NCBI GenBank assembly: GCA_000004695.1
Contig: CM000150.2
Coordinates: 3,232,001 to 3,296,000 of the forward strand
Length of the DNA stretch: 64,000 nucleotides
Reading direction: 5' to 3'
DNA from: Dictyostelium discoideum
Taxonomy: Eukaryota
Each line of letters starts with the position of its first letter. The first letter of the stretch is position 1. The notes beneath the pieces are model-generated. The model searched no databases and was not told the origin of the DNA. It was given only the letters and a program-made list of their open reading frames with translations. This document shows, one piece after another, positions 1,164-6,620 of this stretch. Both the position numbers and the translations under genes were made by a program.

Positions 1164-3474
1164 ATGGAGTTTTCAACCAATTCAATTATTATATTAAATA
1201 TTATAAAATTTTTAGATGTTGATGATATTTTTTCCTGTGAATTAGTAAATAAATCTTGGTTAAAAGTTTCAAATAAAAATAAACTTTGGGAAATTTTATT
1301 TTTAAAAAATATTTTTAATATTGATGATTATTTTAATGAATCTACAATTTTTTCAAAAGGTTTATTAATTAGTAATAATAATAATAATAATAATAATAAT
1401 AATAATAATAATAATAATAATAATAATTATAATAATAATAATAATAATAATAATAATAATAATAATAATAATAATAATAATAATAATAATAATAATAATA
1501 ATAATAATAATAATAATAATAATAATAATAATAATAATAATAATAATAATGAAAATAATAATAATGATAATAATGAAAATAATAATAGTAATAATAATAA
1601 TGAAAATAATAATAATAATATTAAAAAAAGACCATTGGAAAATGAAACAATTTTAAAAAGCTTATCACCCAAAATATTAAAATGTGATTATAATAATAAT
1701 AATAATAATAATAATAATAATAATAATAATAATTATAATAATAATAATAATAATAATAATAATAAAATAAATAATAATAAAAGTGTTGATTGTATTAAAA
1801 TTAGAGATTTATATAAAATTAGTTTTCCACATCATTATAATAGATTATCAAATTTTAATAAATTAAAAAATAAAGGAGTAATTTCAGATGATGGAGTTTG
1901 GAGTGGTTGTGAAAATCTTGACAAAATTATTGAACACAAAATTTCGGCATTTAGTATTTTGTCATCTTTAAAAAGTGATTCGTATTCAATTAAAAATGAT
2001 TCAAAAGTAATTTTATTATCATTTAATAGTGATACTGGTTACGATGAGAGTTATTGTTATAAATATGATACATTTCAATATTTAATTTGTATTCCAAATA
2101 AAATTGAATCAATTAATGGTGAAATAAATTTAGAATATTCAAGATTTATCAAAGCATCATTTAAAATCTATTCAAAATATGAATATTGTGAACAGTAAAT
2201 ATAATAATTTTTATTTTTTTATTTTTTTTTTTTTTCGATTCTAACATATTATTTATTTTTTATTTTTAGTTTTGAAAATGATGATTCTGGATATGATGGT
2301 GTTTTATTAAAAGATGAATCATATTATAATTTTGAATTATTCGATATTAACGAGCCAACATTTGATGATGATGATAATGGTTTGGTAAATTTAATGAAAG
2401 TAATCAAGAAGAGGTTGAATATGTTAAAGAGAGTTATGTTAAAGGTTTAGTTGAATTTTCAAGAAATTCATTATCATTTTCATCATATTATTATGAAAAT
2501 AAATTTTTCCAACTCACTGGTTTTAATAGAGAAGAACGAACCAAGAAAAGAGTTCCCTTTGGATATGATTACAATCATTTATTTTCATCAGTATATCCAA
2601 TTAAACAAAATTATAAATTATTCAACGATAGTGTTGAAAATAATCAAGATTTTAAATTTACTGATATTTCAAAAACACCAAAAGATGTTAAAACACTTTT
2701 ACAAAATATCATATGGAAATATAGTATTTTTTATTTACCTGAATATTATGTAAGTTTTAATAAATAATAATAAATAATAGTAATAAAATAATAATAGTAA
2801 TAAATAATAATAATAATAATACTTATTTTTTAAAATTAAATAAATAGATGAGAAAATATAAATTAAAGTTTCTCATGAAAACAGAAGAAGAATTAGAAAA
2901 TGAAAAACCATATTTTGGCGAAGGGTTGGATCAATTTGTAAGAGAATCAATAATTTTAGAAAATAAATTATCATTTTCAGAAGATTATTATTCAGCTGGA
3001 ATGATTTCTTCATATGATTTTAAATTCTTAATTCCATATGATGACAATAATAATTTAATTATTAATCTAAAATATTATGATAGGAATTTTGAAGAAGAAA
3101 TTAATTTCACTGTTGAAGATAGATTAGTTAATTCTAATGGATGTTGTATTTGGGAAAATGATGATGATTTTAATAATTTATATTCATATAAATTACAGGA
3201 AGAAAGAGAAAAAATTCAATATGATAAAAAATTAATTTCAGATGAAATTGATTTGAAAAGTTTATCATTCTCTCAATTTATCTCATTATTACTTAAAAAG
3301 AAATATCCAAATATTTATTTTAAACTTTCAGATGTTTTTGCGGTTTCAGGTCTTGATTGTTTAATTGATTTTACTGATGACGAAAATAAAAGTTTAAAAC
3401 CAAATATTGATAAAATTGGAAATTTTAATGACCCACCCCAAGAAAAAAATTTAAGAAATCTAGATTTTAAATAA
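1164..3474 (+). CDS. F-box protein, tandem copy 1. Exons approx 1164..2194, 2270..2749, 2848..3474. Exon 2 has a ~100-bp deletion relative to copy 2 that shifts the frame and gives an early stop, so this copy is a probable pseudogene or divergent.
   Basis: N-terminal F-box-like motif (IILNIIKFLDVDDIFSCELVNKSWLKVSNKNKLWEILFLKNIF) followed by a coding (AAT)n poly-Asn tract of about 100 residues. GTAAAT/GTAAGT donors and TTTTTAG/AAATAG acceptors match copy 2. Exon-2 reading ...FDDDDNGLVNLMKVIKKRLNMLKRVMLKV* is out of frame compared with copy 2. Confidence 0.6.
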
Positions 3475-3919
3475 ATAAAAAAAAAATAAAAATAAAAATA
3501 AAAAAAAAAAAATCTAGAAAAAAAAATCTAAAAAAAAATAAACCATTGTTTTGAATTAATTTTATTTTTTAATTTTAATTTTAATTCTATTTTTTTTTTA
3601 AAAACGAGTTCCGTTTGGATATGATTATAATTATTAAAACAATTCCAACAATCTTAAAAATAAATAATAATAATACTTATTTTTAAAATTAAATAGATGA
3701 ACCAATTTAATTAAGAAGAAAAAGAAAAAGAAGAAGAAGAAGAAAAGGAAGAAAAGGAAGAAGAAAATGAAAATGAAAAACCAAAATTCTTGTTAAAAAA
3801 AATAATAAAAAAATGTTGAAAATCGTTTTTTTTTTTTTTTAAAAATTCCTTTTTTTTTTTTTTTTTTAAAAAATAATCTAACCCTAAAACCTCACTTTTT
3901 GTAAAGCAAATAATAAAAA

Positions 3920-6114
3920 ATGGAGTTTTCAACCAATTCAATAATTATTTTTAATATTATAAAATATTTAGATGTTGATGATATTTTTTCCTGTGAATTA
4001 GTAAATAAATCTTGGTTAAAAGTTTCAAATAAAAATAAACTTTGGGAAATTTTATTTTTAAAAAATATTTTTAATATTGATGATTATTTTAATGAATCTA
4101 CAATTTTTTCAAAAGGTTTATTAATTAGTAATAATAATAATAATAATAATAATAATAATAATAATAATAATAATAATAATAATAATAATAATAATAATAA
4201 TAATAATAATGAAAATAATAATAAAAATAATAATAATAATGAAAATAATAATGAAAACAATAATATTAAAAAAAAGACCATTGGATAACGAAACAATTTT
4301 AGAAAGTTTATCACCTAAAATATTAAAATGTGATAATAATAATAATAAAATAAATAATAATAAAAGTGTTGATTGTATTAAAATTAGAGATTTATATAAA
4401 ATTAGTTTTCCACATCATTATAATAGATTATCAAATTTTAATAAATTAAAAAATAAAGGAATAATTTCAGATGATGGTGTTTGGAATAGTGAAAATCTTA
4501 GCCAAAATTTTAAACACACAACTTCAGCATTTAGTATTTTATCATCTTTAAAAAGTGATTCGTATTCAATTAAAAATGATTCAAAAGTAATTTTATTATC
4601 ATTTTATAGTGATACTGGTTACGATGAGAGTTATTGTTATAAATATGATACATTTCAATATTTAATTTGTATTCCAAATAAAATTGAATCAATTAATGGT
4701 GAAATAAATTTAGAATATTCAAGATTTATCAAAGCATCATTTAAAATCTCTTCAAAATATGATTATTATGAACAGTAAGTATATTAATTTATTATTTTTT
4801 TTTATTTTTTTAAAATTCATACATGTTTTTTTTTTCGATTCTAACATATTATTTATTTTTTATTTTTAGTTTTGAAAATGATGATTCTGGATATGATGGT
4901 GTTTTATTAAAAGATGAATCATATTATGATTTTGAATTATTCGATATTAACGAACCAACATTTGATGATGATGATGATGATGATGGTGATGATGGTGGTA
5001 ATAAAAAACTATCATTTAAAAATTATGATCCAGAATCAATCGAATCAGAAGCTGGAATTTCAGTATTTGAATTATGGTTTGGTAAATTTAATGAAAGTAA
5101 TCAAGAAGAGGTTGAATATGTTAAAGAGAGTTATGTTAAAGGTTTAGTTGAATTTTCAAGAAATTCATTATCATTTTCATCATATTATTATCAAAATAAA
5201 TTTTTCCAACTCACTGGTTTTAATAGAGAAGAACGAACGGATAAAAGAGTTCCCTTTGGATATGATTACAATCATTTATTTTCATCAGTATATCCAATTA
5301 AACAAAATTATAAATTATTCAATGATAGTGTTGAAAATAATCAAAAATTTAAATTAACTGATATTTCAAAAACACCAAAAGATGTTAAAACACTTTTACA
5401 AAATATCATATGGAAAAATAGTATTTTTTTTTTAACTGAATATTATGTAAGTTTTAATAAATAATAGTAATAAAATAATAATGATAAATAATACTTACTT
5501 TTTTAATACTAAATAAATAGATTAAAAAATTTAATAAAGAAGAAGAAGAAGAAGAAAATGAAAAACCATATTTTGGCAAAGGGTTGGGTCAATTTGTAAG
5601 GGAATCAATAATTTTAGAAAATGAATTATCATTTTCAGAAGATTATTATTCAGCTGGAATGATTTCTTCATATGATTTTAAATTCTTAATTCCATATGAT
5701 GACAATAATAATTTAATTATTAATCTAAAATATTATGATAGTAGTTTTAAAGAAGAAATTAATTTCACTGTTGAAGATAAATTAGTTAATTCTAATAATG
5801 GATGTTGTATTTCAGAAAGATATGGTTTTAATAATTTATATTCATATGAATTACAGGAAGAAAGAGAAAAAATTCGATATGATAAAAAATTAATTTCTGA
5901 TGGAATTGATTTGAAAAGTTTATCATTCTCTCAATTTATCTCACTATTACTTAAAAAGAAATATCCAAATATTTATTTTAAACTTTCAGATGTTTTTGCG
6001 GTTTCAGGTTTTGATTGTTTAATTGATTTTACTGATGACGAAAATAAAAGTTTAAAACCAAAAATTGATAAAGTCGCAAATTTTAATTGTTTAGCTAAGA
6101 TTTCAAATGAATAA
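3920..6114 (+). CDS. F-box protein, tandem copy 2. Exons approx 3920..4774, 4870..5446, 5521..6114. Exon 1 has one extra A in an A8 run near 4268 (copy 1 has A7), which causes a frameshift. The coding sequence is otherwise about 675 aa.
   Basis: About 90% nucleotide identity to copy 1 across all three exons and both introns. Splice phases are consistent (exon 1 ends ...GAACA|GTAAGT; exon 2 starts after TTTTTAG). The overlapping ORFs 3920..4288 and 4209..4778 are the two frames on either side of the homopolymer indel. Confidence 0.6.
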
Positions 6115-6289
6115 ATAAATAAAATAAATAAAATAAAAAAATAAATAAAAAAAAAATAAAAATAAACCATTGTTTTTTTAATTAATTTTAATTTTTTTTT
6201 TTTTTTTTTTTTTTTTTTTAAAAAAATTCTATTATCAAGAAAATCATTATCCAATTAAAGAATTTAAAAATTATTCAATTATTTTGTTC

Positions 6290-6620
6290 ATATGGAAAAA
6301 TAGTATTTCTTTATTCATCAATAAATTGTTTAAGTTTTAATAAATAATAAATAAATAAATAAAAATAATAATAATAAATAAATAGATGAACGAATTTAAC
6401 CATGAAGAAGATAATGAAAAATCAAATTTTGGTGAAGGGTTGGGTGATTTTTTTGTGAATCCATAATTTTAGAAAATAAATTATCATTTTCAGAAGATAT
6501 CCCTAGTGGTCTTGGTTATTTAATTGATTTTACTGATTAAGAAATTAAAACCAAATATTGAAAAAGTTGGAAGCTTAAAAGATTTATCATAAGAAAGTAT
6601 TATAAGAAATGAAAGATTTT
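6290..6620 (+). pseudogene. Degenerate third copy of the F-box gene family. It retains only the exon-2 tail, the intron and part of exon 3, with internal deletions.
   Basis: Recognisable homology to 5400..6114 (catatggaaaaatagtatttc... gtttaagttttaataaataata ... aaatcaaattttggtgaagggttgggtgattttttt ... ttatcattttcagaagat ... ttaattgattttactgat). Several stop codons and deletions are present. Confidence 0.55.

Follow-up and report, generated by a model that had tools for sequence, protein, structure and literature searches.

Two tandem F-box genes of Dictyostelium discoideum with different, young frameshifts and the probable decay of both copies

Why would neighbouring copies of one gene each carry a different disabling fault? 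The question is raised by a stretch of 64,000 nucleotides (nt) of the Dictyostelium discoideum genome (strain AX4, chromosome 1; assembly GCA_000004695.1, contig CM000150.2, positions 3,232,001 to 3,296,000, forward strand; hereafter the window, or AX4), in which a head-to-tail array of genes encodes an F-box followed by polyasparagine (poly-Asn) tracts. An initial annotation, made from the sequence alone, took the array for a young, decaying tandem family, and allowed that one of its lesions might be a homopolymer sequencing error. Here we find that the two full copies of the array bear frameshifts that recur in a second assembly and are derived relative to related species. The copies are probably young non-processed pseudogenes, or at best truncated derivatives of an intact ancestor, lying among older debris.

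Two full copies and their frameshifts

The array is made up of four pieces: copy 1, remnant 1, copy 2 and remnant 2 (Table 1). Three tandem F-box/poly-Asn copies had initially been described; the arrangement holds, and the count rises to four pieces with remnant 1. Exon models built on GTAAGT or GTAAAT donors and T-rich AG acceptors give each full copy three exons, with both introns at homologous sites, so that the intron-exon structure is kept. The two copies follow each other with a period of 2756 bp. Aligning 1100-3600 with 3860-6240 gives a mean column identity of 90%, far above chance, and there are 145 mismatches in 2244 aligned columns (93.5% identity in aligned columns). The coding indels that separate the copies are mostly multiples of 3, and the poly-Asn (AAT)n tracts differ in length between copies, as had been noted: 82 versus 45 amino acids (aa) in tract 1 and 30 versus 9 aa in tract 2. 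The DNA of the window is extremely AT-rich (13-33% GC), and tblastn found no further copy of the family elsewhere in its 64 kb.

Each copy encodes an F-box, poly-Asn tracts and a C-terminal domain of ~500 aa. The N-terminal 70 aa of copy 2 match the Pfam families PF12937 (F-box-like; E=1.7e-7, 31.3 bits against a cut-off of 24.3) and PF00646 (25.4 bits against a cut-off of 20.5), both over residues 9-47; copy 1 differs from copy 2, on which the match was scored, at two residues of this segment. No Pfam family matched the 558-aa C-terminal part.

The lesion of copy 1 lies in exon 2, which measures 480 nt, compared with 577 nt in copy 2. The 97 nt that are gone (97 mod 3 = 1) shift the frame, which ends in ...FDDDDNGLVNLMKVIKKRLNMLKRVMLKV* at a stop some 20 codons on, and the product accordingly stops in the first third of the C-terminal domain (~385 of ~700 aa overall). 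Alignment and translation thus bear out the frameshifting deletion of about 100 bp that the initial annotation had placed in exon 2, with exon 1 intact. Beyond the deletion, the rest of exon 2 and the whole of exon 3 are still open in the ancestral frame. Neither protein search returned a protein from copy 1. Two other readings of this copy were set aside: the GTAAAT donor of intron 1 is not a lesion, as the D. cf. discoideum gene has the same donor, and microhomology ('ATGGT' on both sides) is not an exact fit to the junction as a source of the deletion.

In copy 2, exon 2 is intact and the frame is lost in exon 1, where a run of seven A residues (A7) in copy 1 has become eight (A8), again as initially described. 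The unrepaired spliced coding sequence stops at ...NNNIKKKTIG*, and the upstream open reading frame (ORF; 3920-4288) has only 122 aa, comprising the F-box, poly-Asn and the stop; the frameshift cuts the F-box from everything that follows it. When one A is removed, a single ORF of 674 aa runs through all three exons. There is also a second defect, a deletion of 22 nt that recasts the last ~9 codons. The ancestral tail is retained in copy 1, in remnant 2 and in the D. cf. discoideum copies, and the 22 nt are lost in copy 2 only. The claim of a different disabling lesion in every copy therefore stands: a 97-nt deletion in one full copy, one added A in the other, and remnants with damage of their own.

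This anatomy bears directly on an existing database entry. The GenBank model DDB_G0269656 (UniProt Q55DI0; P0001) is 100% identical to the protein encoded in the window and starts within the ORF 4209-4778. Its start codon is an internal, unconserved ATG located where the poly-Asn tract is read out of frame. Although the entry is described as an ordinary hypothetical protein, it covers the 3' part of a frameshifted F-box gene and lacks the F-box. In the literature library searched, we found no mention of DDB_G0269656, DDB_G026965x or their neighbours, no relevant paper on a Dictyostelium F-box pseudogene and none describing the newer genome assemblies.

Reality, polarity and age of the lesions

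A second assembly, GCA_054883475.1, allows the lesions to be read again. Its locus (L003) is 99.72% identical to window positions 1-12131 and differs by 4 single-nucleotide polymorphisms (SNPs), six length changes in long homopolymers and two offsetting 9-nt shifts in one (AAT)n tract. The A8 run and the junction of the 97-nt deletion are the same as in the window, and the annotation of this locus, on a 3.2-Mb contig, holds the exact 564-aa protein. Because the two assemblies disagree at other homopolymers, they represent independent data, and the homopolymer error allowed for at the outset is very unlikely at the A8 run.

Comparison with relatives gives the direction of change. Alignment with other members of the family, which the initial annotation had proposed as a check, finds them in-frame at both lesion sites. 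The site of the A-run reads AAT AAG AGA CCT TTG GAT in D. cf. discoideum (K-R-P-L-D) and ATG AAA AGA CAA TTA GAT in a D. dimigraforme copy; there is no long A-run in either, and the straight readings are AATAAGAGACCT (D. cf. discoideum) and ATGAAAAGACAA (D. dimigraforme). Both species also possess the 97-nt segment that copy 1 lacks. Since these outgroups are in-frame at the A-run site and retain the 97-nt segment, both AX4 lesions are derived. A programmed frameshift or slippage at A8 was rejected, as the run is not conserved in relatives and copy 1 has an in-frame A7.

In the annotation of the newer, second assembly, copy 1 (L003 2914-5224, which corresponds to window 1164-3474) is a protein of 702 aa. 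With both canonical introns in place, this length can be reached only if 29 more nt are spliced out over the deletion frameshift, for example GTAAATTTAATGAAAGTAATCAAGAAGAG (window 2385-2413). Neither two 702-aa reconstructions nor the 344-aa exon 1 ORF had an exact match in the protein collection, so that the actual 702-aa model is unconfirmed. It looks like a fix by a gene predictor, through an implausible 29-nt intron, that masks a pseudogene.

How long have the copies been decaying? With D. cf. discoideum as the outgroup, copy 1 has accumulated 5 synonymous and 21 non-synonymous codon changes and copy 2 has accumulated 6 and 23. Each lineage bears ~37-45 substitutions, and none has created a stop in either copy. 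Neutral simulation with 30-42 substitutions per lineage leads one to expect 2-4 stops per copy, with a probability of no stop of 0.01-0.11 for each. The lack of nonsense substitutions, together with indels that are mostly multiples of 3, indicates that both copies were kept open until recently and that the frameshifts are young. The description of a young, decaying tandem family thus fits the two full copies well, their lesions being recent, derived and reproduced in the second assembly.

Rates of change differ along the gene. By crude Nei-Gojobori estimates, the ratio of non-synonymous to synonymous divergence (dN/dS) of the copies is 0.2-0.56 in the F-box and ~1.0-1.3 in exon 3. An intact adjacent pair in D. 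purpureum, P0004 and P0005 (L004 10001-12367 and 13517-15925), has a dN/dS of 1.34 overall, with 0.33 in the N-terminal 160 codons and 6.2 in the last 200 (38.5 non-synonymous versus 1.5 synonymous), which suggests diversifying selection on the C-terminal domain. As the intact pair shows the same pattern, ratios near 1 characterise the family as such and do not prove long pseudogene drift. On these ratios, the F-box appears conserved and the C-terminal domain fast-evolving.

The gene family and the history of the array

HMMER, run exhaustively against 1.84 billion cluster representatives, and word-index searches found relatives of the C-terminal domain only in Dictyostelium: one protein from D. 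dimigraforme, one from D. cf. discoideum and four from D. purpureum. A lone match outside the genus, a fish protein, was weak and was taken as a low-complexity artefact. The word-index searches are incomplete, as a clean 168-aa query missed the identical P0001, and both long queries gave the same five proteins; models with long poly-Asn tracts (689, 702, 792 and 662 aa) and P0006/P0008 were missed by the protein searches. AlphaFold2, run on a family alignment of 6 sequences, gave no usable fold for the C-terminal domain (mean predicted local distance difference test score 39.8, predicted template modelling score 0.37).

The F-box motif is conserved in every full-length relative. All four D. 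purpureum proteins (677-723 aa) have an F-box followed by the same conserved domain, and their genes form two same-strand pairs, one of them directly adjacent and head-to-tail. D. dimigraforme has three copies in a row, with 50-70% mutual identity over the C-terminal domain; two of these have an F-box that is 92% identical to that of AX4 copy 2 over 70 residues. The locus of the first copy in that row (P0002, L002 10001-12044) contains no F-box at all, yet a gene of 533 aa is annotated there; the F-box has therefore been lost from a copy more than once in the family. The F-box is joined to the C-terminal domain in the four D. purpureum and two D. dimigraforme members and in neither window copy. 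By analogy with other F-box proteins, the ancestral product would have been a substrate adaptor of a Skp1-cullin-F-box (SCF) ubiquitin ligase, acting via Skp1.

Lineage-specific F-box families that evolve by birth-and-death are known from nematodes and plants, for example the F-box/FTH genes of C. elegans and the FBA/FBK clusters of plants. The Dictyostelium family resembles them in its conserved F-box and fast-changing putative substrate domain, in its tandem clusters with pseudogenes and fragments, and in independent duplications in sister lineages. It differs in its size, with 1-4 copies seen per genome rather than tens to hundreds, in its restriction to Dictyostelium, in a C-terminal domain without a Pfam family, and in that positive selection is suggested by crude ratios only. 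Within Dictyostelium, FbxA/ChtA has WD40 repeats. The proteins described here share with it the organism and an N-terminal F-box, and thus presumably the role of SCF substrate adaptor, whereas they have poly-Asn linkers and an unrelated, unclassified domain of ~500 aa in place of WD40 repeats.

The remnants record earlier events. Remnant 1, missed by the initial annotation, is heavily degraded. It keeps 34 nt of exon 2, from the VPFGYDY region (3602-3635), after which 3655-3783 take in the 3' end of intron 2 together with ~100 nt from the beginning of exon 3. Remnant 2, initially described as copy 3, begins with the last part of exon 2, continues through the 3' end of intron 2 into exon 3 and, after a large internal deletion, finishes with the tail of exon 3. 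It is the orthologue of the truncated D. cf. discoideum pseudogene at L001 11277-12236; its 3' tail is 87% identical to cf_B of that species, and the diagnostic KVGSLKDLS.ESI.RNERF is present in both. As its orthologue is present in D. cf. discoideum, remnant 2 is old, and the third copy, although real, does not share in the youth ascribed to the array. A single point in the VPFGYDY region of exon 2 is where both remnants begin, and in each case the 3' flank of the full copy before it lies immediately upstream. The two are collinear, with an alignment identity of ~75% in low-complexity sequence. Should remnant 1 have arisen by duplication of remnant 2, the unit that was duplicated may have comprised a gene plus a remnant. 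Their positions come from visual inspection and from masked or local alignments; unmasked blastn gave AT-rich noise only.

The D. cf. discoideum locus (L001) is syntenic, with 92-93% identity to the window in the genes that lie downstream. It holds a full copy, an internally deleted copy and a 5'-truncated copy with stops. Its tail (Table 1) marks the deleted copy as a recent duplicate of the full copy in the same species. Synonymous divergence (dS) is 0.066 between copies 1 and 2 and 0.12-0.14 to D. cf. discoideum. These distances and the tail identities together indicate that each lineage made, or homogenised, its own young duplicate beside a shared old fragment, a history that would be classic birth-and-death turnover. 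The gene models of D. cf. discoideum have difficulties of their own here. In intron 2 of the full copy (L001 8640-8745), the homologous GTAAGT donor (8644) and TATAG acceptor (8703) lead to a frameshift, and the 689-aa model needs a weak, non-homologous GTTTTA donor (8648) and an A-rich acceptor (8739); this copy may be impaired too, and its intactness is uncertain. P0003 (L001 10001-12235, 348 aa) is a chimaera of the 3' part of the deleted pseudogene and the next, 5'-truncated pseudogene.

Differences between copies 1 and 2 are clumped, with runs of identity of up to 217 nt, and long identical blocks are also conserved between species. The similarity within the genome could reflect either recent duplication or gene conversion, and constraint would also account for the identical blocks. 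The interval of ~700 nt between the two lesions holds perfect-identity runs of 128 and 144 nt. The initial suggestion that the array is a substrate for gene conversion is thus plausible, while actual conversion is not demonstrated. The introns and 3' flanks of the copies diverge by ~9-19% plus indels, and synonymous sites of the exons by only 4-7%. The higher non-coding divergence could stem from fast slippage in low-complexity, AT-rich DNA or from exon-biased homogenisation.

Several further observations concern the array and its surroundings. Codon 16 of copy 1, inside the F-box (window 1210), is TTT (Phe) in the window and TAT (Tyr) in the second D. discoideum assembly, in copy 2 and in relatives, a discrepancy that reflects strain variation or else an error in the reference. 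The region upstream of the array matches D. cf. discoideum twice (L001 4736-5134 and 6169-6779). A G+C-rich 12-mer, TCCACAGGTGTC, with an E-box-like CAGGTG, occurs twice, 78 bp apart (window 389-400 and 467-478), in the AT-rich intergenic region 5' of the array; 0 of 100 shuffles gave even one match. A tRNA-Ile (AAT) gene on the reverse strand (window 24805-24877) has no relation to the F-box array.

Table 1. Coordinates of the array, its lesions and its counterparts in D. cf. discoideum
Feature	Position	Strand	Details
Copy 1, three-exon F-box gene	1164-3474	+	Exons 1164-2194, 2270-2749, 2848-3474; introns 2195-2269, 2750-2847; from splice sites, translation and alignment to copy 2
F-box segment, copy 1	1188-1304	+	Residues 9-47
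Poly-Asn region, copy 1	1374-1763	+	(AAT)n runs 1374-1427, 1431-1550, 1692-1733, 1737-1763
Intact A7 run, copy 1	1623-1629	+	ATT AAA AAA AGA CCA = I K K R P
Junction of 97-nt deletion, copy 1 exon 2	2372-2381 (at ~2376/2377)	+	Missing part corresponds to copy 2 ~4977-5073
Remnant 1	~3602-3790 (~190 nt)	+	Between copies 1 and 2; from sequence reading and local alignments
Copy 2, three-exon F-box gene	3920-6114	+	Exons 3920-4774, 4870-5446, 5521-6114; introns 4775-4869, 5447-5520; from splice sites, translation and alignment
F-box segment, copy 2	3944-4060	+	Pfam match, residues 9-47
GenBank model DDB_G0269656 (UniProt Q55DI0, 564 aa)	4251-6114	+	Starts at internal ATG (MKTIILKKRPL...) past the original start; without F-box
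A8 run, copy 2	4268-4275	+	One A more than the A7 of copy 1; derived relative to in-frame relatives
Altered C-terminal tail, copy 2	6085-6114	+	...NFNCLAKISNE* in place of ...DPPQEKNLRNLDFK*
Remnant 2	~6230-6620	+	5'-truncated, internally deleted, with stops and a 1-nt deletion
D. cf. discoideum full copy	L001 7116-9347		
D. cf. discoideum internally deleted copy	L001 10430-10990		Tail 94% identical to own full copy
D. cf. discoideum 5'-truncated copy with stops	L001 11277-12236		Tail 87% identical to AX4 remnant 2

Explanations for the array and their meaning

The history that we think likely is as follows. The ancestor would have encoded an N-terminal F-box for docking to Skp1 in an SCF ubiquitin ligase, poly-Asn linkers and a domain of ~500 aa, presumably for substrates. 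Once D. cf. discoideum had branched off, a full-length gene would have been duplicated head-to-tail in the line leading to D. discoideum, and both daughters would have been held open for most of the time since then, each taking one different frameshift only recently. Copy 1 would have lost 97 nt of exon 2, leaving at most a truncated F-box protein, and copy 2 would have gained one A in the A7 run, uncoupling the F-box from the domain; the older remnants after each full copy would stem from earlier rounds of duplication and decay. The array has much in common with other non-processed pseudogenes, as introns and flanks are kept, the copies are tandem, each has one frameshifting lesion compared with intact relatives, and older fragments lie alongside. 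Unlike the usual case, the lesions are unusually young and complementary.

Some observations weigh against this history. Both assemblies may go back to one laboratory lineage, and the lesions could be specific to that (NC4/AX) lineage. A C-terminal dN/dS near 1 fits relaxed or diversifying selection alike, and we do not claim that AX4 lacks another paralogue, as the searches miss known members. For either copy, many in-frame GT..AG pairs exist that, if spliced, could put the reading frame right, and the downstream ORF of copy 2 is intact and annotated, as is the F-box-less D. dimigraforme copy, so that a product without the F-box might be of use to the cell. The simplest challenge, that a fault in sequencing or assembly produced one lesion or both and that at least copy 2 is really intact, draws on the nature of the copy 2 lesion, one base in a homopolymer (the classic type of error) in an otherwise perfect ORF. 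It is nevertheless very improbable, as a separate assembly (a 3.2-Mb contig rather than a 4.9-Mb chromosome), which differs at longer homopolymers and at 4 SNPs, has both lesions, and its annotators called the same F-box-less protein. It is also improbable that copy 2, or less likely copy 1, still makes a full protein, by way of an unannotated intron or of one-A polymerase slippage on A8. The best candidate intron, 4128-4302 of copy 2 (175 nt, GTAATA...TTTTAG), would remove the poly-Asn tract and A8 in-frame to leave 616 aa; its AT content of 92% lies within the 89-94% of the real introns and its TTTTAG end is intron-like, and the freedom of copy 2 from any other disabling change to its reading frame is consistent with continued selection. 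However, about a third of GT..AG pairs are in-frame by chance, so that dozens qualify, the GTAATA donor is unlike the GTAAGT/GTAAAT of the four real introns, and no annotation uses the intron, the models in both AX4 and the second assembly starting downstream. The candidates in copy 1 are coding-like (74-82% AT) and would remove the conserved HFENDDSGY...DINEPTF block. As for slippage, the A-run is not conserved in relatives, which argues against a programmed site, and a standard -1 ribosomal shift on A_AAA_AAA would give the wrong frame for a +1 insertion.

A third possibility, that copy 2 has turned into a functional F-box-less gene (DDB_G0269656), with an SCF-independent role or one as a decoy for substrates of the family, strikes us as unlikely. 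It is consistent with the 564-aa ORF being intact across three exons and with the annotation of P0002 at a locus devoid of an F-box. Yet no other part of these proteins is under as much constraint as the F-box (by the dN/dS ratios and the identity to D. dimigraforme given above), and its loss removes a conserved function; the internal ATG has the out-of-frame, unconserved setting already described; the mRNA would bear an upstream ORF of 122 codons from the original ATG; and the lesion is recent, so that an intact downstream ORF requires no selection. Young pseudogenes, or truncated derivatives at best, therefore remain the reading that we favour, with loss of function in both copies and no rescue at the RNA level as its presumed consequences.

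The complementary nature of the lesions invites a further thought. One unequal crossover or conversion between them would rebuild an intact gene, as copy 1 is sound on its 5' side and copy 2 on its 3' side. It is tempting to speculate, although we hold the idea to be doubtful, that the family is an adaptively evolving, Dictyostelium-specific ubiquitin-ligase adaptor that helps to recognise changing targets, for instance bacteria, parasites or social partners. Perhaps the window then shows two complementary null alleles, possibly polymorphic in the wild (with intact A7 or non-deleted alleles), that form a reservoir recoverable through recombination between 1630-2376 and 4276-4976.

The main weight of these findings is for annotation: DDB_G0269656 is mis-described, its upstream twin is probably a pseudogene, and one "gene" of D. 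cf. discoideum joins fragments of two pseudogenes. The locus captures, at a stage that can be dated, the death of genes in a small F-box family confined to one lineage; this is biologically ordinary and leaves current ideas unchallenged. Its fast-evolving C-terminal domain may be of interest for the study of rapidly evolving recognition systems in social amoebae.

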